From positions 102,605 through 166,604 of the IMG/VR virus record IMGVR_UViG_3300032286_000710: 64,000 bases of DNA. One strand, 5' to 3'. The stretch comes from a virus. Positions within the stretch are counted from its first letter, which is position 1, and every line of letters begins with the position of its first letter. The position numbers and the translations under genes were made by a program. The notes below the pieces were generated by a model, which had not been told where the DNA came from, made no database searches, and saw only the letters and a program-made list of their open reading frames with translations. Of the stretch, positions 6,544 to 50,895 are shown one piece after another.

Positions 6544-7146
6544 CTAGATAGTATCTAGATCTTCGTCGTTTTCTGGAACCGGCTCATTTGCTAGCAATTT
6601 GCGGGATTTTTTAATGGCTCGACCCACCAATAACTTACCTAAAGCATCCATAAATGGAAGACCCCTTCTACTAGCCTCTTCACGAAGCCACCCAACCACA
6701 GTGTCCATATTTTGCTCACACCAATCATTTCCATGCTCATTCATTTCTAGGGCATGACGTTTACATGAGCAACTATCTGTCATTTGAATTCCAACACTTT
6801 TAATCATTTTAGAAAGAATAGTGCCGGGGTGATTGGGGTGTTCTTCTAAGGTCTTTGGGTAAAGTGAACGTATATATTTGGCAGGGTCATCGCCAAGCAT
6901 ACTTTCTATCTTTTGTTCAGCCTGAGATTTAGTCCAATCTCCAATTAAATCATAATCTGATCCACTCCAAATAACCATATTGATTGGTAAAGAAAGCATT
7001 TGGACAGAAATGGTCTTTGAAGTTGGATTATCCATAAAGATGAAGTTTAATTGATCAAATTTAACCTCTGGTGGATTAATAATCTTTCCAGAGTTATCTG
7101 AATATGGTGGGGGGTTAATAGTAATTTGATTTTTTAAAGTAATCAT
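6544..7146 (-). CDS. Hypothetical protein with a CxC motif
   Basis: 200 aa ORF. GTILSKMIKSVG...SCSCKRHALEMN resembles the motif in 58486..58752. Confidence 0.6.
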   Translation of the reverse strand: MITLKNQITINPPPYSDNSGKIINPPEVKFDQLNFIFMDNPTSKTISVQMLSLPINMVIWSGSDYDLIGDWTKSQAEQKIESMLGDDPAKYIRSLYPKTLEEHPNHPGTILSKMIKSVGIQMTDSCSCKRHALEMNEHGNDWCEQNMDTVVGWLREEASRRGLPFMDALGKLLVGRAIKKSRKLLANEPVPENDEDLDTI

Positions 7147-39278: not shown

Positions 39279-39492
39279 AAAAAGTCTCCTATACGGTATT
39301 ATACACCTTATAGATATAATTTGACAGATTCACTGATCCAAACAGGGGCGATGGGGGAGGATTGGGTAGTACATTAGTTTATATGTTGGTAATTGTGAAT
39401 GGACCACCCCCGGTTTTTTCGACGTATCTTGCCTAGACTACTTATAAGATAAAACCCCCCCATATCCCCCATCTTAACATTATAGTGTGTGT

Positions 39493-39536
39493 GGTGGGCC
39501 GCGTTCGCCGTAAACCCTTATGGGGTATGGACTTAC
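39493..39536. repeat. Paired-palindrome element E1 (half copy)
   Basis: GC core followed by TAAACCCTT-N7-ATGGACTTA. Confidence 0.7.
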
Positions 39537-39585
39537 GACTAATCATATGAATGATACGATCAGCTCATTAAGGGAATAATATATT

Positions 39586-39601
39586 TGGCACAGCATTTGC
39601 T
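39586..39601 (+). promoter_or_regulatory. Sigma54-type -24/-12 site
   Basis: TGGCAC-AGCAT-TTGCT. Confidence 0.6.
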
Positions 39602-39660
39602 CTAGAGAATATTTATTGCTTTGGCACAAGATTATATTCAAAAATATTTTAGATTGCCAC

Positions 39661-39688
39661 TTGACATGGCCGATAAGTATGGTATAAT
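39661..39688 (+). promoter_or_regulatory. Early sigma70-type promoter
   Basis: TTGACA-16 bp-TATAAT with CGATA in the spacer. Confidence 0.8.
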
Positions 39689-39719
39689 AAGAGCATAAGA
39701 AAGAAAGAGAGAAAGAAAA

Positions 39720-39914
39720 ATGACAATCAACACTGAAATCAAGACAACCTACAATGGCAAGACTTATACGGGCTTCGTTGTAGAAAGCAAACTGGTCAAG
39801 GGTCGTGAGATGATCACGATCATGATTGAAGATAGTTCGCGGAATGAAGGTATTGGATACCGTAGCATGTATGTCGATATGATGTCTCAAACGTCAGAAA
39901 ATCTTTTTGCTTGA
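39720..39914 (+). CDS. Early hypothetical protein
   Basis: 64 aa after a promoter and a purine-only leader. Confidence 0.65.
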   Translation: MTINTEIKTTYNGKTYTGFVVESKLVKGREMITIMIEDSSRNEGIGYRSMYVDMMSQTSENLFA

Positions 39915-39917
39915 GGC

Positions 39918-39946
39918 TTGACACGGGAAAAGACGATAGATATAAT
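39918..39946 (+). promoter_or_regulatory. Early sigma70-type promoter
   Basis: TTGACA-17 bp-TATAAT. Confidence 0.8.
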
Positions 39947-39974
39947 AGAGAGAAAGAAAGAGAGAGAAAAGAAA

Positions 39975-40142
39975 ATGACATACTTCATTCAAATCTTAGA
40001 CGCTTGGGATTGTGAGATAGACTTTATCGGCCCCTTCAATACTGAAAACGAAGCCTATGAGGCTGGTTGGAGTAAGTGGGAAGGCGATGAAAATGCCTAT
40101 AGCAGTCATATCGTCAAGAGGCTCCCCGCTTCTACTCACTGA
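39975..40142 (+). CDS. Early small acidic protein
   Basis: MTYFIQILDAW...; start placed after the purine leader. Confidence 0.6.
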   Translation: MTYFIQILDAWDCEIDFIGPFNTENEAYEAGWSKWEGDENAYSSHIVKRLPASTH

Positions 40143-40218
40143 AAAAATATTTCCTAGGGGCTTGACACGGCGAAAGCCGATGTATATAATAGAGCGAAAG
40201 AAAGAAAAGGGAAAGAAA

Positions 40219-40347
40219 ATGACAACGCTGATTCTAATCGTGGTAGGAAAGAAGTATAAGGTATACAAGGATATGGGCAATGGTAAGCGTAGGCTTCTCG
40301 GCTCTTTCAATAGTTCGACTGAGGCCGAACGATTCATGAACGCTTGA
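40219..40347 (+). CDS. Early small basic protein (paralog of 42737..42886)
   Basis: GKKYKVYK...RRLL..F....EAERFMN; has its own promoter at 40162. Confidence 0.65.
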   Translation: MTTLILIVVGKKYKVYKDMGNGKRRLLGSFNSSTEAERFMNA

Positions 40348-40408
40348 CAAATAGATAGACGATAGATATAATATCCACAGTTATCTAACCCTAAGAAAGA
40401 AAAAGAAA

Positions 40409-40624
40409 ATGTTTGGCACTGCATACGCTGTCCGTAAGAATAACCTCAACACTATCTTCGCATCTATGATCGCTGGTAAGTATACCAGTGTGATCGACCC
40501 GAAGGGTAGGGTATATGCTGGCCTTATCAATGCTATCATGCGTGAGGATGGTAGTGGTCGCAACTGGATCGTAACCATCACGAATCAGACCAAGAGTGAA
40601 CAAGTGTTCATTCATGCAGTCTAG
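40409..40624 (+). CDS. Early hypothetical protein
   Basis: 71 aa behind a TTGACA/TATAAT promoter at 40344. Confidence 0.65.
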   Translation: MFGTAYAVRKNNLNTIFASMIAGKYTSVIDPKGRVYAGLINAIMREDGSGRNWIVTITNQTKSEQVFIHAV

Positions 40625-40678
40625 AGCGTACTATCTAATCCGCAGGGGTAAGCAGCACCCCCAACAGGGGGGAGCAAC

Positions 40679-40718
40679 AGCAAATCCTGTGCCAAAAAAT
40701 CTTGGCATACCATTTGCG
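40679..40718. promoter_or_regulatory. Back-to-back pair of sigma54-type sites
   Basis: Minus TGGCACAGGATTTGCT (40679-40694) and plus TGGCATACCATTTGCG (40703-40718), 8 bp apart. Confidence 0.6.
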
Positions 40719-40731
40719 TATAGATTTGTTC

Positions 40732-40809
40732 TAAACCCTTACCCTATAAGGACTTAGGGCGAGGGCGGCGGGCCGGATTTGACGTAAACCCTTACTGTAT
40801 ATAGACTTA
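40732..40809. repeat. Paired-palindrome element E2
   Basis: 25-bp palindrome, 28-bp GC core, 25-bp palindrome. Confidence 0.85.
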
Positions 40810-40896
40810 CGACTAGTAAGGACATCGCATCGAAGAGGTGTTTAAGGGAATAAAATATGCCATGCTCAAAAAATGGGCGTGGTAAGATAGGGGGAC

Positions 40897-41064
40897 TGTT
40901 GCAAAATCATACAGTGATGCAGTTTCTCGGCCAAAAGTGCTATAGCAAAATGCAACACACTGTAGCAAAATGCTACGCTTAATCTCTAGGCACAGAAAAT
41001 AGCATAGCGTTTTTCCCGCGAAATACGCACAAAAAAATAATCTATGATTGGCACGGGGTTTGCT
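40897..41064 (+). promoter_or_regulatory. Putative enhancer-dependent sigma54 promoter, copy 1
   Basis: Three TGTWGCAAAATGCWACA-like boxes (40897, 40941, 40961) and TGGCACGGGGTTTGCT at 41049-41064. Confidence 0.6.
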
Positions 41065-41100
41065 CTATATATAGATAGAGAAAGAAAGAGAGAGTTTAAG

Positions 41101-41532
41101 ATGATCGGTTTTTTTGATTTTGACATGACTACAGCGATTACAAAAGGTAAGGAAACTCCAAGTTTTAGCCAGTTTAAGAATCCTGAGTTTGCTGTAGAAG
41201 ATATTCTGAATGCAAAGCCTACAAAGATTACGAAAAACGTAATGAATAGGTATAAGAAAGTTTTTATTCTAACCGCTAGAAATGATGGAAAGAATAATGA
41301 AATGAGTAATGCAATGCAAAAGTATTTTATGCAAAATGGGATATATATTCCGAATAATCAGATTTTGATGCTTGGGGATTATATGAAAGATAGAAAGACT
41401 GCTGAAAAGAAATCAGTTGTGCTAAATAGGTTAAGTAAGCATTTTAAGCAAACTATTCATTTTTGGGATGATGATAACGATAACGTAAGATACGCAAGAT
41501 GCTTAGATAGGGTAAAGACATTCCAAGTCTGA
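41101..41532 (+). CDS. HAD-superfamily phosphatase-like protein
   Basis: FFDFDMT (motif I), ILTAR (II), K (III) and FWDD (IV). Confidence 0.7.
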   Translation: MIGFFDFDMTTAITKGKETPSFSQFKNPEFAVEDILNAKPTKITKNVMNRYKKVFILTARNDGKNNEMSNAMQKYFMQNGIYIPNNQILMLGDYMKDRKTAEKKSVVLNRLSKHFKQTIHFWDDDNDNVRYARCLDRVKTFQV

Positions 41533-41613
41533 AAAATATTTTCTGGGGCTTGACAAGCAAAAAGCCGATATATATAATAGGGAAAGAAGAAAGAAAGAGA
41601 AAAGGAAAAGAAA

Positions 41614-41826
41614 ATGAAGAATCTTAAGGTTTTCAATACGCTGAACGAGTTGATCGACTATCTTGACGAAAACGAAGTTGATACGCTTGTGGGTTATGCT
41701 GCTTTCGGGCTTGATCTTCTGGATCATGCTAGAAACAATGACAACGAAATCGAAATCGGTTGGGATGGTGGATTCATCCAGATTGACGATATGGGATACG
41801 TTGTTGCAGACTTTGCAATCTGCTAA
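41614..41826 (+). CDS. Early acidic hypothetical protein
   Basis: 70 aa; promoter at 41549. Confidence 0.65.
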   Translation: MKNLKVFNTLNELIDYLDENEVDTLVGYAAFGLDLLDHARNNDNEIEIGWDGGFIQIDDMGYVVADFAIC

Positions 41827-41900
41827 TCCCCCATAGGTGGGGTTGACACGTTAGAAAATCTTTATAGAATATATTTCATCACTTCAAAAGGAAAAAGAAA

Positions 41901-42086
41901 ATGACCAACGACTTTGTATACAATATGAGCGAAATCAACGAAGAGGATATCTACAGGGGCTGGGAAGAAATGGCAAACGAAGATAGCGAGTTATTTTTGG
42001 TAGTCTACGGTGTTCCCGGTGAAGATGAAGAAGATGAGGAAGATGGGTATGATGAGGACTTTTGGGGAGAGCAGTATTTCGCGTGA
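41901..42086 (+). CDS. Early highly acidic protein
   Basis: 61 aa, D/E-rich. Confidence 0.6.
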   Translation: MTNDFVYNMSEINEEDIYRGWEEMANEDSELFLVVYGVPGEDEEDEEDGYDEDFWGEQYFA

Positions 42087-42245
42087 GCAAATCCCGTGCC
42101 AAACGCGAATGGCACACGGTTTGCCCTAGGATTTGACCTAAACCCTTACTACCAAAGGACTTAGGGCGAATCCGGCGGGCCGGGTTTGCCGTAAACCCTT
42201 GATACATAAGGACTTAGGGCGAGTATCGACGCAAAGGCTGTGCCA
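42086..42245. repeat. Paired-palindrome element E3 (42139-42216) flanked by sigma54-type sites
   Basis: Sites at 42086-42101 (-), 42110-42125 (+) and 42230-42245 (-). The two inward-facing sites each lie 13 bp from the element. Confidence 0.85.
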
Positions 42246-42296
42246 AAAAATAATATATTCCAAGCCTAAAAAAGAGGCATGTTAAGATGGGCAATC

Positions 42297-42463
42297 CGTT
42301 GCAAAATGCTACACTACCTCAGTTTCACGGCGGAAATCACTAACGCAAAATGCTACAGGGTGTTGCAAAATGCTACGCTCAAAAACTAGGCACAAAAAAT
42401 GTCATAGCGTTTTTCCCGAGCGAAACGCAAAAAAAATAATCTATGTTTGGCACGGTAGTTGCT
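42297..42463 (+). promoter_or_regulatory. Putative enhancer-dependent sigma54 promoter, copy 2
   Basis: Three boxes (42297, 42341, 42361) with the same spacing as copy 1, then TGGCACGGTAGTTGCT at 42448-42463. Confidence 0.6.
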
Positions 42464-42497
42464 CTATATATAGGTATAAGAAAGAGAGTTTGAAAGA

Positions 42498-42664
42498 TGA
42501 GAAAGTCAAGTTATTACCGTGGTTCTGATGATGGATACGATTATTCCCGAGACAATCGGGATGGATATGTTGACGTTGAACTCCGTTTGTTGGAGATAGA
42601 TCGTCAGAATCGTGAGAATCAAAAGCGGTTCGAAGAATCGAAAAACAAAAACGAAAAATCGTAA
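42498..42664 (+). CDS. Small hypothetical protein (about 55 aa)
   Basis: MRKSSYYRGSDDGYDYSRD... Occupies the same position behind the duplicated promoter as the HAD gene; the 3' end is approximate. Confidence 0.5.
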
Positions 42665-42736
42665 GTTTTTCCGCTTGCGTCTTCAAGATTAGACGCTAGA
42701 ATGTCGATAGATAAGAAAGAGAAAAAGGAAAAGAAA

Positions 42737-42886
42737 ATGGAAACCACAGTTCTGATTTTTGATCGTAAGGGTAAAAAGTATAAGGTTTATAAGCAGACTA
42801 ACCATACAAACGGTTGGTATCGTCGTTTGCTTGCTACGTTCAAAACTTCTCAGGAAGCCGAAAGATTTATGAACTCCCGCCCATAA
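42737..42886 (+). CDS. Early small basic protein (paralog of 40219..40347)
   Basis: Shares GKKYKVYK and EAERFMN with the paralog. Confidence 0.65.
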   Translation: METTVLIFDRKGKKYKVYKQTNHTNGWYRRLLATFKTSQEAERFMNSRP

Positions 42887-42952
42887 GGGGGGTATGCAAG
42901 GCTGAAAAAGTTTCTTAGAATCATACCAGTATCACCAACCAAGAGAGAAAAA

Positions 42953-43282
42953 ATGGCTACAAAGTTTAAAATCATCGAAGATGCCAAGCGTCAAATCCGC
43001 TCATGCTTTTTGGGAATCGCCGTTCCCCACCAACCTAGCCTAGCCGATGGCGAATATGGGCCAATCAAGAGCGAAAAGGTAATCAAGTTTAATAAAACGG
43101 CTTTGCGAAATATGGGCAAGATGAAGAAAGAGAAAGTCGATCCCCGTCTTTTGGGGGGTAGTGATCTTATGGTTGATAAGGTAGGCAAACCGGGAAGCAA
43201 AGATAGAGTAGAGGCTTTACGGGCTTTCTATGAACTACAGAATATGGCAGGACAGGAAACCTCCGTGTTTTACGAAGAATAG
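42953..43282 (+). CDS. Early hypothetical protein
   Basis: 109 aa; GKPGSKDRVEALRAFY motif. Confidence 0.65.
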   Translation: MATKFKIIEDAKRQIRSCFLGIAVPHQPSLADGEYGPIKSEKVIKFNKTALRNMGKMKKEKVDPRLLGGSDLMVDKVGKPGSKDRVEALRAFYELQNMAGQETSVFYEE

Positions 43283-43290
43283 GGGTTTTT

Positions 43291-43402
43291 GGTAAGATAG
43301 GTAATCTGGGTAATCTTGGTAAGATAGGCAAGGGGGGTAATCTAGGCAAAATGGGGGGTTTGGGCGATCTGGGAAAACTGGGTAGTCTCGGCCAAAGTGG
43401 CC
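43291..43402. repeat. 9-bp-periodic G-rich tandem repeat
   Basis: GGTAAGATA, GGTAATCTG, GGTAATCTT, GGCAAAATG and similar; about 12 units. Confidence 0.6.
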
Positions 43403-43494
43403 GGATCATGTGGTAGTCAGCGTTGTCAGCGAGAAATCCCCTTGACAACTAAAGTCTAGAGTGTAGAATGTCGATATAAAGGAAAGAGGAAACA

Positions 43495-43716
43495 ATGAAC
43501 GAGTACCAAAAAGTATATAAGTTTGATAATGGGTACGGTGCTAGTGTGGTGTGTAACTCACTACTAGGAACCTATGGGTCTAAGGATGGATTGTTCGAAG
43601 TTGCCATTCTGAAAGGCGACGATATTTGCTACGATACCCCTATCTCCCCAGATGTTGTGGGGTGGCTTGACTTTGCCGGTGTGGCCGATATACTTAATCA
43701 AATCAAGGCTCTCTAA
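43495..43716 (+). CDS. Conserved phage hypothetical protein
   Basis: FDNGYGASVV...GLFEVAIL...DVVGWL motif. Confidence 0.75.
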   Translation: MNEYQKVYKFDNGYGASVVCNSLLGTYGSKDGLFEVAILKGDDICYDTPISPDVVGWLDFAGVADILNQIKAL

Positions 43717-43729
43717 CTAAGGAAAAAAG

Positions 43730-44032
43730 ATGAATCACACTGAAGCAACAAAGATGGTTCTTGGTAAGACTAATCGTGGTCAACGTAAGGTGGGAAATAA
43801 TACCTACGCTTACATTGAACATGACGGAAGTGTGGCGATTGAGTTGCACGGTACTAAGGTGGTGGTTTTTTATCCTAACGGGCTGGTAAAGTTGAACAGT
43901 GGTGGATATCGAACCAGCACTACTAAAAAGCGTATTAACCAGTATAGCCCCGTGAGTGTGTACCAGAAAAACTTTGAATGGTTTTTGCGTGATGGTACTC
44001 AGTTTGAAGATAATGTTTTGGTTACTAACTAA
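43730..44032 (+). CDS. Conserved phage hypothetical protein
   Basis: LHGTKV...LNSGGYRTSTTKKRINQY...VYQKNFEWF. Confidence 0.75.
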   Translation: MNHTEATKMVLGKTNRGQRKVGNNTYAYIEHDGSVAIELHGTKVVVFYPNGLVKLNSGGYRTSTTKKRINQYSPVSVYQKNFEWFLRDGTQFEDNVLVTN

Positions 44033-44047
44033 AGAAAGGGATCACGG

Positions 44048-44146
44048 ATGGTCGATATTAACTGGGTACAAATAGGTGTGGGATTTGTTATTGGCATTGG
44101 TTGCTCTTGGATTGTTTCTGATCTTGTTTTTCCAATAAGGAAGTGA
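44048..44146 (+). CDS. Small membrane peptide (32 aa)
   Basis: MVDINWVQIGVGFVIGIGCSWIVSDLVFPIRK. Confidence 0.5.
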   Translation: MVDINWVQIGVGFVIGIGCSWIVSDLVFPIRK

Positions 44147-44148
44147 AA

Positions 44149-44226
44149 ATGCGTACAGGTGATGCGATTGTTCTTTCTATTTCATTCGTGATCGGATGTA
44201 TAGCGGCTTGGATTGTGAATAGTTGA
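44149..44226 (+). CDS. Small membrane peptide (25 aa)
   Basis: MRTGDAIVLSISFVIGCIAAWIVNS; AAGGA RBS. Confidence 0.5.
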   Translation: MRTGDAIVLSISFVIGCIAAWIVNS

Positions 44227-44228
44227 CG

Positions 44229-44286
44229 TAACTCTATATCTGATAAGGGTTTAGGGCGAATGGGGCGGGCCGCGATTTTCGTGCCA
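44229..44286. repeat. Element E4 (half copy ending in a sigma54-like site)
   Basis: One palindrome, the GC core, then minus-strand TGGCACGAAAATCGCG. Confidence 0.75.
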
Positions 44287-44385
44287 AATCACCTTTCATC
44301 TTTTTAAGGAAAAAATATTGTTGGAGGGGGCTTGACGTTGCCGATAATCCCTGTATAATCGAAGTATCACCAAGGGAGAAAAGCG

Positions 44386-44556
44386 ATGTACGAGTTTGAT
44401 GATGTAGAGCGTGTTCTGGCTGAAGCAGCGGCTATTCAAGCAGAGCAGCATATGGTAGAGCCGATTGACGATCCGGCTGTGCTGTGCGATTTCTACGATT
44501 ATGCCGCGATTGTTGGTATTGACGTTGACGATTACCTTCCCGTAGAGTATACTTGA
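44386..44556 (+). CDS. Early acidic protein (56 aa)
   Basis: MYEFDDVERVLAE...; GGGAG RBS; promoter at 44332. Confidence 0.6.
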   Translation: MYEFDDVERVLAEAAAIQAEQHMVEPIDDPAVLCDFYDYAAIVGIDVDDYLPVEYT

Positions 44557-44566
44557 GGAGAGAAAG

Positions 44567-44767
44567 ATGAGTTGCCCCGATCCTACCCACGATTACGAGG
44601 ACTATGATATGGATCACCATGATGATACTGCCGACCCGAACGATTATCGTGACGATTACTATGATGATAGTATGGATGGCGACCACGATAGTGCTATGAA
44701 CTCTATCGGTTGGGACGTTGATGAAGGTTATGGATGTTTTGGTGACACTTACGGAGATGATTTCTGA
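44567..44767 (+). CDS. Extremely Asp-rich protein
   Basis: 66 aa; DDSMDGDHDSAMNSIGW motif; GAGGAG RBS. Confidence 0.7.
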   Translation: MSCPDPTHDYEDYDMDHHDDTADPNDYRDDYYDDSMDGDHDSAMNSIGWDVDEGYGCFGDTYGDDF

Positions 44768-45171
44768 TGAATGATGCGTTTACTTTGGGCATTTGTTTTG
44801 CTTGTGCCGTTGCGGTTATTGGTGTTTTTCTTCTATATAACATTTATAGGGGTGTAAATGATAGTCTTACTAATGCTGTTATTGGTACTGTATATAACTT
44901 TCGATACTTCCAGCCAGTAACGGGAGACTATGAAAGGTATCTCGCCAAGGTTGTTGGTGTTCGTAAGTTGAGTCAGGCTGAAATCTCACGTTTGAACTGG
45001 ACGAGCGATTACCGCCAATATGATAGTGAGTTTAAGCGTAGTCCTACGCTTGTTACATGCGAAATGGGTAACGGTGACTTTCGACAGTTCTATGCTGAAC
45101 GTAGTGACATGTGCAGACGTTCAGCTGTAGGTGAACTTTTGTTCAAGGCGGGTGTGGCACACCTGTTTTAA
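44767..45171 (+). CDS. Membrane-anchored hypothetical protein
   Basis: N-terminal transmembrane helix; 134 aa. Confidence 0.7.
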   Translation: MNDAFTLGICFACAVAVIGVFLLYNIYRGVNDSLTNAVIGTVYNFRYFQPVTGDYERYLAKVVGVRKLSQAEISRLNWTSDYRQYDSEFKRSPTLVTCEMGNGDFRQFYAERSDMCRRSAVGELLFKAGVAHLF

Positions 45172-45195
45172 TGTACACTACCTAGACCCTTCTCC

Positions 45196-45273
45196 TAAGT
45201 CCTTACGGGCAAAGGAGTTAGGGCTAGGCGGGCGGGCCGGATTTGATGTAAAGTGTTGTCAGATATAGACTTA
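45196..45273. repeat. Paired-palindrome element E5
   Basis: 25+28+25 geometry. Confidence 0.85.
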
Positions 45274-45353
45274 GAACAAGTTAAAGATTGGGCTTGACAA
45301 AAGCCGATAATATGCTAGGATACCTAAGTCGTTACAGTACAAGGAGTTATACC

Positions 45354-45530
45354 ATGTCAAAATGGGATGATTGGGTACATTGTGAGGAAACGGCAGATTT
45401 GGTAGTTTGGGAGGAATGGGAGGCTTGGGTAAGGGAGGAAAACTGCGGGGGAGTGTCTCTCCCTAAGAATGAAGATCGATGCTGTGGGGATAGTCAGCGA
45501 GAGTATGACTTGACAGACCTTCCATTTTAG
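45354..45530 (+). CDS. Trp-rich acidic small protein
   Basis: MSKWDDWVHC...; AAGGAG RBS. Confidence 0.55.
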   Translation: MSKWDDWVHCEETADLVVWEEWEAWVREENCGGVSLPKNEDRCCGDSQREYDLTDLPF

Positions 45531-45576
45531 AGTAAACTGTTAAGAGTCAATAGCCGATAACATTATAAGGGAAAAC

Positions 45577-45855
45577 ATGGGAATATTAGACACATATAGT
45601 GCGTATGAAGTGCGTGATATTTGGCGTGACGATACCAATGGTTGGCCCGAAGACTTTATTCTATGCGTGAATGATCTACTGGCTAATGATCTTCTGGATT
45701 CATGGCTTGACAACCACAGCGATGAGGAGTATCGTGAGCGTATTCGTGAAATCATTGAAGATGAAACATATGGATATGAGGATGAGGATGGCAATGAAAT
45801 GCTTGACTTTAATCCTAGTAAAGATAATGATGGACAGTTCAGATTATTTGAATAG
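45577..45855 (+). CDS. Acidic hypothetical protein
   Basis: 92 aa, D/E-rich. Confidence 0.6.
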   Translation: MGILDTYSAYEVRDIWRDDTNGWPEDFILCVNDLLANDLLDSWLDNHSDEEYRERIREIIEDETYGYEDEDGNEMLDFNPSKDNDGQFRLFE

Positions 45856-45939
45856 TTGATAAACTGGGGGCTTATGGCATAATGATATCAAAGAAGCCAT
45901 AAGTAAAAGACAGTCGAGTATGGCAGACACCCCCATTTT

Positions 45940-46013
45940 GGGTCATTAGCTCAGTTGGTTAGAGCATCGGACTTTTAATCCGTTGGTCGTAGGTTCGAAT
46001 CCTACATGACTCA
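45940..46013 (+). tRNA. trnK: tRNA-Lys(TTT)
   Basis: Cloverleaf; anticodon loop CT-TTT-AA; T-loop TTCGAAT; no encoded CCA. Confidence 0.92.
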
Positions 46014-46074
46014 TTGACTTTTTGGTGTGTATACAGTATAATAGATAAAACCATTCCTTTAACCCCTAAATACT

Positions 46075-46218
46075 ATGTACAACGAAAATGTTATGAAGTG
46101 GTGCGGCCCTTATTATACTGAAGAGTACGATGATCTTATCGTATATGATGAGGAGATTATCGTAGTAGATGACAGTGGGGAATGGTACAATATTTATGAT
46201 TCGGAGGCTGGCGATTGA
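46075..46218 (+). CDS. Small acidic protein (47 aa)
   Basis: MYNENVMKWCGPYYTEEYDD... between tRNA genes. Confidence 0.45.
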   Translation: MYNENVMKWCGPYYTEEYDDLIVYDEEIIVVDDSGEWYNIYDSEAGD

Positions 46219-46228
46219 GTTGCGGGTA

Positions 46229-46299
46229 GCCTGCATAGTATAGTGGTATTACAGTTGATTTGTAATCATCGGACGGGGGTTCGATTCCCTCTGTGGGCT
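46229..46299 (+). tRNA. trnT: tRNA-Thr(TGT)
   Basis: Cloverleaf; loop TT-TGT-AA; some acceptor-stem wobbles or mismatches. Confidence 0.85.
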
Positions 46300-46304
46300 T
46301 TTGA

Positions 46305-46570
46305 TCGGGAATGGTGTAACGGTAGCACAAATGACTTTAACTAACCGGAGTGCATTATAGGGAAACCTTAAATTGTATAACCTCTCAAATTCGGGGAACG
46401 CTTAACTGCCAATCCCGAGCCAAGCCTATATGGAAGGTGTAACGACTTTACGGGAGGCGTCTAAAGCAATGCTATGACGAAGAGAAAGTCTAGACTACAA
46501 ACCGCAAGGGTAACGAAAGTTATAGTAGTATGTGGATCATTTTGTCTAGGTTCAAATCCTAGTTCCCGAA
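46305..46570 (+). tRNA. trnQ: tRNA-Gln(TTG) interrupted by a group I intron
   Basis: Exon 1 (46305-46337) joined to exon 2 (46533-46570) rebuilds AATGA-CT-TTG-GA-TCATT and the TCGGGAA/TTCCCGA acceptor stem. Confidence 0.88.
46338..46532 (+). ncRNA. Group I intron (IC3-like, 195 nt, no ORF)
   Basis: P AAATTCGGGGAA, Q AATCCCGAGC, R GTGTAACGACT, S AAGAGAAAGTC. P1 has a U·G wobble with the IGS GGAGTGCAT, and the intron ends in G. Confidence 0.88.
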
Positions 46571-47236
46571 CTTATTATAAGATTTAATCCATTTTCTTAC
46601 GGCGTTGTCACTAACGCCATACATTTTACCAATTGTAGTCATTGGATGATTTTTAATTAAATAATCTAATTCTTCTTTTGTTGGCCTGTCTACCTTCCTC
46701 AACCAAGGTTTTGGGCCTTGCTTACCTTTTTTAATTTTTGGTGGTTTTTTGAATCTTTTACCAGCATAAGTGTCTGTTTGACTATGACAATTTGGACATA
46801 AGAAACATAAATTTTCTAGTCTATTATCATTGGGAATACCATTTTTATGTTCAAGTTGTAATGATATCTTTTTGCCGTTCCACGTATTTAATAGTCCACA
46901 CTCTGCGCATTTATACTCAATTAAATTATTACGAATGATTCTTTGTTTAATACAGTTGCGATTCATAGTTCCATTTTCACAAAAATATTCGTGATTAGAT
47001 TTTTTAGGAGTAAATCGTTTTCCCTTATTTGAACCTTTACCAAGAGATATATGAGACATGTCTATATTTTCTTGCTTGGCCCTTCTTTTAACAGTGTTAT
47101 GGTTTCCACCCTTATTATTCATTCCAAAGTATCTTAAAATATCTGCAATTGTATTAGACTTAGAAACGAGATCTTTAAACTCATCTCTTGATATTGACCA
47201 TATAACGCTTCTATTTTTTCTTTTTTGTTCTTGCAT
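46559..47236 (-). CDS. Free-standing HNH homing endonuclease
   Basis: LQLEHKNG...DNRLENLCFLCPNCHSQT plus HTH modules; GTGTATA at 47294-47300. Confidence 0.85.
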   Translation of the reverse strand: MQEQKRKNRSVIWSISRDEFKDLVSKSNTIADILRYFGMNNKGGNHNTVKRRAKQENIDMSHISLGKGSNKGKRFTPKKSNHEYFCENGTMNRNCIKQRIIRNNLIEYKCAECGLLNTWNGKKISLQLEHKNGIPNDNRLENLCFLCPNCHSQTDTYAGKRFKKPPKIKKGKQGPKPWLRKVDRPTKEELDYLIKNHPMTTIGKMYGVSDNAVRKWIKSYNKFGN

Positions 47237-47307
47237 TTTTATTCCAAGTATGGTAAGATAACTGTGAATAGTAGATGTGTGATACCATATTATTATACAC
47301 AAAACAT

Positions 47308-47379
47308 ACGTAGGTAGCATAATGGTAGTGCCACAAACTGTTAATTTGTCATGTGTAGGTTCGACTCCTACCCTACGTG
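47308..47379 (+). tRNA. trnN: tRNA-Asn(GTT)
   Basis: Cloverleaf; loop CT-GTT-AA. Confidence 0.9.
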
Positions 47380-47383
47380 CTAT

Positions 47384-47455
47384 GGCCCCATCTTCTAACG
47401 GTTAGGAAATCGGATTTTCGCTCCGAGAATCAGGGTTCGATTCCCTGTGGGGTCA
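47384..47455 (+). tRNA. trnE: tRNA-Glu(TTC)
   Basis: Cloverleaf; loop TT-TTC-GC. Confidence 0.88.
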
Positions 47456-47459
47456 TTTT

Positions 47460-47533
47460 GGGAATGTAGATCAATTGGTTAGATCGCTAGCCTGTCACGC
47501 TAGAGGTTGCGGGTTCAAGTCCCGTCATTCTCG
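47460..47533 (+). tRNA. trnD: tRNA-Asp(GTC)
   Basis: Cloverleaf; loop CT-GTC-AC. Confidence 0.92.
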
Positions 47534-47544
47534 TTATCTTTTCG

Positions 47545-47602
47545 TAAGTCCTTATCTATCAAGGATTTAGGAACAACGGGGCGGGCCGCGTTTTTCGTGC
47601 CA
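47545..47602. repeat. Element E6 (half copy ending in a sigma54-like site)
   Basis: TAAGTCCTT-ATCTATC-AAGGATTTA, the GC core, then minus TGGCACGAAAAACGCG. Confidence 0.75.
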
Positions 47603-50708: not shown

Positions 50709-50895
50709 CAAGCCGATAACATAGTGTATAATGAGAGAGTAAGACATGGAGAATGTAGCGTAATGGTAGCGTGTGGGAAGTTCCGAACTGCGACAATAGT
50801 GCAGAGTAGGCAAACAAATGCCCATGAAGTGGTTCGATTCCACTCTTCTCCCCTTGACAAGTCGATAACATAGTGTAGAATGATGGAGTAAGACA
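50701..50895 (+). promoter_or_regulatory. Tandem duplicated sigma70 promoters (about 46-bp direct repeat)
   Basis: TTGACA-agccgataacatagtg-TATAAT (50705) and TTGACA-agtcgataacatagtg-TAGAAT (50854). Confidence 0.8.
50748..50852 (+). ncRNA. tRNA-like RNA with an expanded anticodon loop of about 43 nt
   Basis: Acceptor GGAGAA(T)G/CTTCTCC, D-arm GCGT-AATGGTA-GCGT, T-arm AGTGG-TTCGATT-CCACT. Confidence 0.65.

Follow-up and report, generated by a model that had tools for sequence, protein, structure and literature searches.

The locus lies within a 64,000-nt window (positions 102,605 to 166,604 of the IMG/VR record IMGVR_UViG_3300032286_000710) of the 166,604-bp genome of an uncultured lake phage, and consists of eight sites matching the sigma-54 (RpoN) promoter consensus, packed into 2.9 kb (39586 to 42462) of the early region among small open reading frames, sigma-70 promoters, palindromic elements and arrays of short dyads (Table 1). 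Three of the sites look like classical activator-dependent promoters, and the others sit in fixed back-to-back or tandem arrangements that recur in many unrelated phages.

Table 1. Features of the sigma-54 site cluster and its surroundings (window coordinates; L numbers denote related phage sequences; a period denotes no strand)
Coordinates	Strand	Feature	Context and support
39586..39600	+	S1, sigma-54 site (TGGCACAGCATTTGC)	60 nt upstream of the -35 of the first consensus sigma-70 early promoter; predicted start about 39612; the same composite (TTTAAGrGAATAAtATATT + site + TCTAGAG...) occurs in relatives L008, L010, L013, L020 and L024 with a variable N5
39661..39688	+	Sigma-70 promoter P1	12/12 match to consensus; predicted to drive the 64-aa ORF at 39720-39914; first of the perfect sigma-70 promoters of the early block
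40680..40694	-	S2, sigma-54 site	Left arm of a back-to-back pair (gap 8); 56 nt after the stop of the ORF at 40409-40624, pointing antisense into that ORF
40703..40717	+	S3, sigma-54 site (TGGCAT variant)	Right arm of the pair; reads into palindromic element A
40726..40817	.	Palindromic punctuation element A	Dyad, GGCGGGCCG box, dyad
40897..40977	.	Enhancer A (predicted)	Three 17-bp dyads (consensus TGTwGCAAAATGCwACA), 12-mer cores starting at 40901, 40945 and 40965
41049..41063	+	S4, predicted enhancer-dependent sigma-54 promoter	Predicted start about 41075; ATG at 41101
41101..41532	+	143-aa ORF, putative HAD-like phosphatase	Predicted to be driven by S4; N-terminal FDFDMT (DxDxT); weak match to HAD_PNKP (E 0.0016, below the family cut-off)
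42087..42101	-	S5, sigma-54 site	Left arm of the second back-to-back pair (gap 8); starts directly after the stop of the ORF at 41901-42086, pointing antisense into it
42110..42124	+	S6, sigma-54 site	Right arm of the pair and outer left arm of a 136-nt palindrome that ends at S7
42133..42224	.	Palindromic punctuation element B	Dyad, GGCGGGCCG box, dyad
42231..42245	-	S7, predicted leftward sigma-54 promoter	Shares enhancer B; predicted start about 42219; reads into element B
42297..42377	.	Enhancer B (predicted)	Three 17-bp dyads, cores starting at 42301, 42345 and 42365, between the divergent sites S7 and S8
42448..42462	+	S8, predicted enhancer-dependent sigma-54 promoter	Predicted start about 42474; ATG at 42497 (55-aa ORF, 42497-42664)
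44272..44286	-	Degenerate site TGGCACGAAAATCGC	Abuts a GGGGCGGGCC box and a dyad; divergent from the sigma-70 promoter at 44332; conserved in L008, L009, L010 and L013
47588..47602	-	Degenerate site TGGCACGAAAAACGC	Next to a dyad and GC box, just after tRNA-Asp

The cluster reported in the first-pass annotation, namely seven exact TGGCAC-N5-TTGC sites, one TGGCAT variant and two degenerate copies, is real, although the minus-strand starts given there are off by one base. The expectation from shuffled sequence is 0.05 exact sites (maximum of 1), and in the whole genome all seven exact sites fall within this 2.9 kb, with none recovered by a reversed-pattern control. The sites at 40680/40703/41049 and 42087/42110/42448, however, belong to two copies of a module duplicated about 1400 bp apart at about 75% identity, such that the number of independent occurrences is about five, still far above chance. 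Within the duplicates, the -24/-12 letters are kept (29 of 30) while the N5 spacer differs (9 of 15 identical).

Several lines of evidence indicate that these are sigma-54 sites. Four near-complete relatives of 145 to 161 kb each carry 6 to 10 sites in a single 2.4- to 3.7-kb block, again with a reversed-pattern control of 0. The GG-N10-GC spacing, whose loss in related phages had been set beforehand as grounds for rejecting the assignment, is strictly conserved, and the N5 spacer varies while GG and GC are invariant. Across 130 unique sites, the positions left free in the search reproduce the extended consensus, TTGGCACG-N4-TTGCW (TT before TGGCAC, R after it, T before TTGC and T after it), and only the N5 spacing is enriched, with 46 unique sites against 1 to 11 for the other spacings from N2 to N9.

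Sites 41049+ and 42448+ each have three dyads with GCAAAATGCTAC cores at -148/-104/-84, and their ATGs lie 37 and 34 nt, respectively, after the GC. In most of 31 unique cassettes across relatives the offsets are the same and the ATG is typically 34 nt after the GC, and 15 of the 31 have a leftward site with a variable N5 on the far side of the enhancer, mostly at about -218 (range, -187 to -221); here, that leftward site is 42231-, which shares the second enhancer in the opposite direction. Dyads within the canonical -70 to -150 interval are present for 41049+, 42448+ and 42231- but not for 39586+, 40680-, 40703+, 42087- and 42110+, although all of these except 39586+ lie within about 300 bp of an enhancer. 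Five of the eight sites have no ORF within 120 nt downstream and read into palindromes or antisense to ORFs, with no Rfam family matching there, whereas 39586+ points at the first early gene, in tandem with a consensus sigma-70 promoter (ATG at +120 from the GC). No AAA+ activator with a GAFTGA loop, sigma-54 or Fis-type HTH is encoded by the phage, with profile searches of its genome returning no match to PF00158, PF14532 or PF02954, nor any match to PF04552, the sigma-54 DNA-binding domain; a host activator would be required. A search for a tyrosine integrase (PF00589) was likewise negative, which fits a virulent lifestyle but does not prove it.

The two arms of the back-to-back pairs are not complementary in N5 (40/110 positions here and 96/260 in other phages), indicating that they are DNA-level sites and not RNA hairpins. 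Gaps are fixed within this family, and across 68 independent viral families the back-to-back gaps are periodic at about 10.5 bp (vector strength of 0.55, with 0 of 5000 random sets as strong), which points to a protein-bound, helically phased architecture. Some geometries in relatives look unproductive for transcription, including face-to-face sites 5 to 6 bp apart and three tandem sites 28 bp apart.

Attempts to identify the host yielded no single candidate. A scan of bacterial genomes for the enhancer core plus a sigma-54 promoter gave 23 hits from many phyla, one of which (L113) is a viral contig binned into a Flavobacteriales MAG, and the genes downstream of those bacterial promoters belong to no common regulon. 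The dyad is at chance level in 401 Burkholderiales genomes (7 matches against 6 for the reversed control; the sample included one unpublished genome, on which no claim rests). A Bacteroidota host is unlikely, given that Shine-Dalgarno sequences are used and that there are 11 perfect TTGACA-N16-18-TATAAT promoters. WhiB, a marker of actinobacterial phages, gave only a subthreshold hit with an internal stop codon, and the nearest protein-atlas clusters for Gmd are viral. No cultured phage relative was found by DNA or by major head protein search, and literature searches for rpoN in freshwater lineages gave nothing useful.

We consider it somewhat more likely than not that the sites are genuine binding sites for the sigma-54 RNA polymerase of the host, built into two duplicated regulatory modules, plus one leader site, at the head of the early region. 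Each module has a back-to-back pair of sites behind the stop codon of the preceding sigma-70-driven gene block, a palindromic punctuation element, and an enhancer of three 17-bp dyads for a putative host activator of the NtrC/LuxO-type AAA+ class. In this view, the enhancer would drive a rightward promoter ahead of the next ORF and, in module B, also a leftward promoter. When the host activator is active, all sites within reach of the enhancers would fire, giving sense mRNA for the next block and antisense or noncoding RNA across the boundary and the 3' end of the previous block, and when it is inactive, the sites would hold closed complexes. The motif, its conservation, the enhancers and the geometry are established from sequence, whereas binding and firing, the identity of the activator, and the presence of rpoN and a matching activator in the host are inferred. 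The absence of a phage-encoded activator, the five sites without an enhancer in the canonical interval, the seemingly unproductive geometries, and the perfect sigma-70 promoters that neighboring genes already possess all weigh against this view.

The proposal in the first-pass annotation that the sites act as a sponge or roadblock for host sigma-54 polymerase, or produce short noncoding RNAs, is only partly supported. It was correct that the motif is the RpoN consensus and far beyond chance, and that most sites do not point at an ORF. Yet at least three sites (41049+, 42448+ and 42231-) have a full enhancer at canonical distance, two of them 34 to 37 nt before an ORF, and we interpret these as ordinary enhancer-dependent promoters, not decoys. 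The roadblock idea was tested and rejected for intragenic sigma-54 sites in Escherichia coli (PMC4591121), while the sponge idea is neither shown nor excluded. Noncoding RNA is plausible for 42231-, which reads into the palindromic element, but no compensatory changes supporting a conserved RNA fold were found, and the dyad elements show neither clear covariation nor a consistent strand bias that would distinguish a role in RNA from one in protein binding.

A possible but less favored alternative is that most sites lacking their own enhancer are not promoters but docking sites that hold sigma-54 holoenzyme in closed complexes, acting on replicated phage DNA as a decoy that drains the small host sigma-54 pool or as boundary or insulator elements between the constitutive sigma-70 blocks and the activator-controlled genes. 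The sites are near-perfect consensus, no activator is encoded, the pairs sit at ORF ends where no intrinsic terminator is predicted, and sigma-54 holoenzyme binds stably without firing (PMC4591121). Moreover, the geometries, which include helically phased back-to-back pairs, sharply fixed face-to-face pairs (gap 4 to 5 in 35 of 52 families) and tandem triplets at 28 bp, recur in phages with no sequence similarity to this one and with 32 to 68% GC. Conversely, roadblock repression was not seen in E. coli (PMC4591121), 8 to 10 sites per genome is a weak sponge until the DNA has replicated, and a sponge would not need conserved position, orientation and distance to enhancers. Additionally, all four paired sites lie within about 300 bp of an enhancer, and enhancers of this type act at that range and from either side. 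In its broadest form, which we likewise regard as tentative, phase-locked pairs and arrays of sigma-54 sites would be a widespread phage device whose main job is to capture host polymerase, either as a decoy that shuts down the sigma-54 stress and repair regulons of the host or as protein-built boundaries between transcription units, with the few sites that have enhancers being the only true promoters.

It is unlikely that the motif is read by something other than sigma-54, such as a phage DNA-binding protein, or marks the ends of a mobile palindromic regulatory cassette copied around the early region, with the RpoN resemblance being secondary. In favor of this reading, S6 and S7 are the outer arms of a palindrome, the sites travel with the dyad/GC-box elements, homologous genes sit behind sigma-54 cassettes in one phage and sigma-70 promoters in another (suggesting cassette shuffling), and the host could lack sigma-54. 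But the match extends to consensus positions that the search did not constrain, the spacing is strict, single nonpalindromic copies sit with enhancers at the right distance from start codons, and the same motif and geometries occur in unrelated phages that lack the dyad elements (62 of 72 loci). That the pairs act as RNA hairpins that terminate or process early transcripts is very unlikely, since, although they follow stop codons and fold into hairpins within significantly stable structures (z of -3.5 to -4.0), no U-tract follows them, no terminator is called there, the N5 segments are not complementary beyond what base composition gives, back-to-back and face-to-face versions would give different RNA hairpins but share the same DNA-level site, and gap lengths follow the DNA helical repeat.

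Sigma-54 transcription is treated as a bacterial stress and nutrient system and, apart from single promoters, is almost unstudied in virulent phages. Recognition of sigma-54 promoters is conserved. Here, an abundant lake phage lineage (more than 599 related terminase hits) would tie part of its early program to a host activator that it does not encode, and its early gene expression would therefore read out a host physiological signal. The helically phased geometry of the paired sites, shared by dozens of unrelated phage families, points to a general way for phages to engage this polymerase, and our literature searches found no description of clustered or paired sigma-54 sites in phages. A preprint on Htm concerns an activator-like AAA+ protein without GAFTGA in a T4-like phage and is not related to these sites.

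Among known systems, the classical glnAp2 promoter of E. coli, with its NtrC sites, shares the -24 GG and -12 GC elements 10 bp apart, 17-bp dyads of 6-N5-6 form with an A/T-rich center about 100 to 140 bp upstream, a tandem sigma-70 promoter, and even the TCGC -12 variant seen at 44272. It differs in that the phage half-site is TGTAGC instead of TGCACC, that the phage has three sites at fixed 44- and 20-bp steps, that one enhancer serves two divergent promoters, that extra sites lack an enhancer of their own, and that the element sits in a virulent-type phage encoding no activator. The E. coli PspF sites upstream of pspA do not resemble the phage dyad. In the qrr promoters of two Vibrionaceae, which drive noncoding RNAs, the same 12-mer core, GCAAAATGCAAC, forms the LuxO box 62 nt upstream of TGGCAC-N5-TTGC, against 71 to 72 nt here. 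Qrr is found downstream of those bacterial hits, but no Qrr or any other Rfam RNA lies downstream in the window, and the phage comes from lakes and has a dyad extending to TGT...ACA. The similarity probably reflects a shared NtrC-family HTH type, not LuxO itself. The promoter-early stem-loop cassettes of T4-type phages are likewise repeated promoter-plus-palindrome units punctuating arrays of tiny early genes, with the same gene behind different cassettes in different relatives, but they use sigma-70 early promoters only and are not known to contain sigma-54 sites or enhancers. Pseudomonas phage YuA is a lytic phage without its own RNA polymerase that uses host sigma-54, through a sigma-54-like promoter, as well as sigma-70 promoters (PMC10914365), but it has a single such promoter, compared with 8 to 10 sites in one block with enhancers, inverted pairs and conserved geometry here. 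Finally, the intragenic and antisense sigma-54 binding sites of E. coli (Bonocora et al. 2015; PMC4591121) include many bound sites that are transcriptionally silent under most conditions and often antisense or far from genes, but they are dispersed, unpaired and weaker matches to the motif, whereas the phage sites are near-consensus, clustered and phase-locked in pairs.

The virus whose early region carries the cluster of sigma-54 (RpoN) consensus sites is represented by a 166,604-bp IMG/VR record with terminal repeats, of which the window forms the last 64 kb, and the public sequencing runs that contain parts of it are lake and freshwater metagenomes. No cultured relative was recovered by searches with its DNA or with its major head protein, but its large terminase has more than 599 relatives at 75-99% identity in IMG/VR, such that the lineage is abundant. 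A search for a tyrosine integrase in the genome returned none.

Scanning the sequence for TGGCAC-N5-TTGC recovered seven exact sites, against an expectation of 0.05 and a maximum of 1 in 100 shuffles, together with one TGGCAT variant and two copies bearing TCGC or ACGC at -12; there is no exact site in the rest of the genome. The clustering described in the first-pass annotation therefore holds. Six of the sites, however, belong to two copies of a module of about 400 bp that is duplicated 1400-1407 bp apart at about 75% identity, so that independent occurrences number about five. Between the two copies, the ten motif letters are kept while the spacers diverge, which is the pattern expected under selection on the motif itself.

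Features of the early region and of other parts of the window, by position in the window
Feature	Position	Strand	Remarks
Exact site	39586	+	60 nt upstream of the -35 of the first of several perfect sigma-70 promoters
Exact site	40680	-	back to back with 40703+, gap of 8 bp; pair 56 nt after a stop codon
TGGCAT variant	40703	+	right arm of this pair
Exact site	41049	+	three dyads upstream; ATG 37 nt after the GC
Exact site	42087	-	back to back with 42110+, gap of 8 bp; pair 1 nt after a stop codon
Exact site	42110	+	right arm of this pair; also the outer arm of a 136-nt palindrome whose other arm is 42231-
Exact site	42231	-	leftward-facing, on the far side of the dyads of 42448+; predicted start near 42219
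Exact site	42448	+	three dyads upstream; ATG of a 55-aa protein 34 nt after the GC; the last exact site, ending at 42462
Degenerate copy	44272-44286		TCGC or ACGC at -12
Degenerate copy	47588-47602		TCGC or ACGC at -12
Palindromic punctuation element	39480-39541		
Palindromic punctuation element	40726-40817		
Palindromic punctuation element	42133-42224		predicted transcript from 42231- would run into it
Palindromic punctuation element	44227-44270		
Palindromic punctuation element	45190-45281		
Palindromic punctuation element	47543-47590		
Array of tiny early genes	39661-42890		42-71 aa
ORF in the array	40220-40347		paralogue of 42718-42886
ORF in the array	42718-42886		paralogue of 40220-40347
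HAD-like phosphatase gene (weak match)	41101-41532		143 aa, behind 41049+; A+T rich
Gene behind a sigma-70 promoter	41614 (start)		directly behind a sigma-54 cassette in a related contig
Borderline Rfam tRNA match	50749-50851		29.9 bits against a cut-off of 29; not called by ARAGORN

To ask whether these are sigma-54 sites, we considered four lines of evidence, all of which point the same way. First, in four near-complete relatives (145-161 kb), the sites again form one block of 2.4-3.7 kb with 6-10 sites each, and the reversed pattern gives none. Second, in 130 unique sites from related contigs, the positions that were not constrained in the search reproduce the extended RpoN consensus: T precedes TGGCAC in 102 of 130 (with T also favored one base further upstream), a purine follows TGGCAC in 125 of 130, T precedes TTGC in 87 of 130, and T follows TTGC in 90 of 130. 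Third, in loci retrieved by protein similarity only, the N5 spacing gives 46 unique sites, against 1-11 for every other spacing from N2 to N9. Fourth, two sites have a complete promoter anatomy, as follows.

Upstream of 41049+ and of 42448+ lie three copies of a 17-bp dyad, TGTwGCAAAATGCwACA, whose cores start at -148, -104 and -84 from the TGGCAC; an A-tract-rich linker follows the dyads, and a purine-rich leader separates the promoter from the ATG. The product of the ORF behind 41049+ has an N-terminal DxDxT motif. Among 31 unique cassettes of this kind in related contigs, most share these offsets, and the ATG is typically 34 nt after the GC. The downstream genes differ between phages: in L132 (a related contig), a sigma-54 cassette directly precedes the gene that here starts at 41614, whereas in the window the phosphatase gene appears inserted between the two. 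The promoter cassettes are therefore exchangeable units. The surrounding block is an array of tiny early genes, each behind its own consensus or near-consensus sigma-70 promoter and a purine-rich leader without a strong Shine-Dalgarno sequence.

In 15 of the 31 cassettes, a leftward-facing site lies on the far side of the dyads, mostly at about -218 (range, -187 to -221), and its N5 varies freely. The site of this type in the window is 42231-, from which the three palindromic dyads are 56-132 bp distant, compared with 72-147 bp from 42448+. The simplest reading is that one enhancer serves two divergent promoters.

Of the other five sites, 39586+ sits in a composite that is conserved in relatives with a variable N5, and many relatives have one or two such sites 37-40 nt before a sigma-70 promoter; we read these as tandem promoters, as at glnA. 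The remaining four form the two back-to-back pairs. These pairs are not RNA hairpins under selection, given that the N5 segments of the two arms match at only 40 of 110 positions (about what base composition gives), that no U-tract follows, and that no terminator is called there.

The dispersed palindromic punctuation element consists of a 27-nt dyad (TAAryCCTTA...TAAGGryTTA type), a GGCGGGCCG box, and a second dyad, and it always travels with sigma-54 sites. Its inner positions vary without clear compensation, and it may be a protein site or an RNase III-type hairpin. In the whole genome, GGTGTATA occurs 7 times and TGGTGTA 20 times, which may represent the late promoter for a phage-encoded sigma factor.

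To establish how general the paired arrangement is, we compared pair geometry first within the lineage and then across phages. Within the lineage, the pairs come in fixed forms: back-to-back pairs have a gap of 8 (11 unique) or 15-18 (4 unique), and face-to-face pairs have a gap of 5-6 (7 unique). The exact gap-8 form occurs in 76 IMG/VR stretches, and of 72 further loci analyzed, 59 have no DNA similarity to this phage, and their G+C ranges from 32 to 68%. A scan allowing gaps of 0-30 gave at least 68 families after grouping by flank similarity; in these 68, gaps fall at 5-11, 14-21 and 25-30, and none fall at 0-4, 12-13 or 22-24. Vector strength is 0.55 at a 10-10.5 bp period, which none of 5000 uniform random sets reached, and the two GG elements are thus about 1, 2 or 3 helical turns apart, on the same face of the helix. 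Face-to-face pairs show a sharp preference for a gap of 4-5 (35 of 52 families), forming a 34-35-bp palindrome that occurs in at least 35 independent viral families (IMG/VR loci L350-L428 and others), and some contigs carry arrays of 3-4 such pairs at 47-bp steps (for example, L252, L258, L263, L267 and L276). Such phasing is what protein complexes bound to DNA produce, although it does not by itself tell promoters from docking sites.

Based on these features, the promoter reading explains three sites fully and a fourth well, and it can cover the pairs, because all four paired sites lie within about 300 bp of a predicted enhancer and enhancers of this type, as established for NtrC, act at such distances and from either side. 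The promoter reading predicts starts near 39612, 40729, 41075, 42136 and 42474 on the plus strand and near 40668, 42075 and 42219 on the minus strand. The motif, its conservation, the dyads and the geometry are read directly from the sequences, whereas binding by sigma-54 polymerase, firing and the identity of the activator are inferred. The phage has no match to the sigma-54 activator AAA+ domains, to the Fis-type HTH or to sigma-54 itself, and we conclude that a host NtrC-family activator is used. The main weakness of this account is that rpoN is presumed in a host that our searches did not identify: Shine-Dalgarno use and eleven perfect sigma-70 consensus promoters argue against Bacteroidota, and no candidate emerged. 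A 15.6-kb contig filed in a marine Flavobacteriales MAG (NZWA01000009.1; L113/L149) carries the same enhancer-promoter cassette as a marine relative, but the same record name and length appear as an IMG/VR viral contig, and it is probably a mis-binned phage contig and not evidence for the host.

The main alternative is that most of the sites without their own enhancer act as decoys for sigma-54 polymerase or as boundaries. It draws on geometries that appear unproductive for transcription, including three same-strand sites exactly 28 bp apart in relative G409 (the record holding L141; positions 6613-6683), a spacing of about the length of a closed-complex footprint, and on the lack of any terminator at block ends. 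Against it, roadblock repression by bound sigma-54 polymerase was looked for and not found in E. coli (PMC4591121), and a sponge would not need conserved positions. The proposal in the first-pass annotation that the sites act as a sponge or roadblock for host sigma-54 polymerase is only partly supported. A reader other than sigma-54 is unlikely, given the extended consensus and the spread of the motif to unrelated phages without the dyad elements.

In the literature that we could search, a single sigma-54-like promoter is described in Pseudomonas phage YuA (PMC10914365), and we found nothing on clusters or pairs of such sites. In Syntrophorhabdus-type contigs (L098, L100, L103 and L108), the same GCAAAATGCAAC box plus a sigma-54 promoter lies directly after the 3' end of an ORF whose C terminus, judged by eye from the sequence, looks like an activator-type helix-turn-helix, and this may be an activator-adjacent target operon. 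The phage dyad has the 6-N5-6 form of the NtrC sites of glnAp2, although the half-sites are TGTAGC here and TGCACC there. Its core 12-mer, at almost the same distance from the promoter, heads Qrr sRNA genes in two Vibrionaceae genomes, where these are LuxO boxes.
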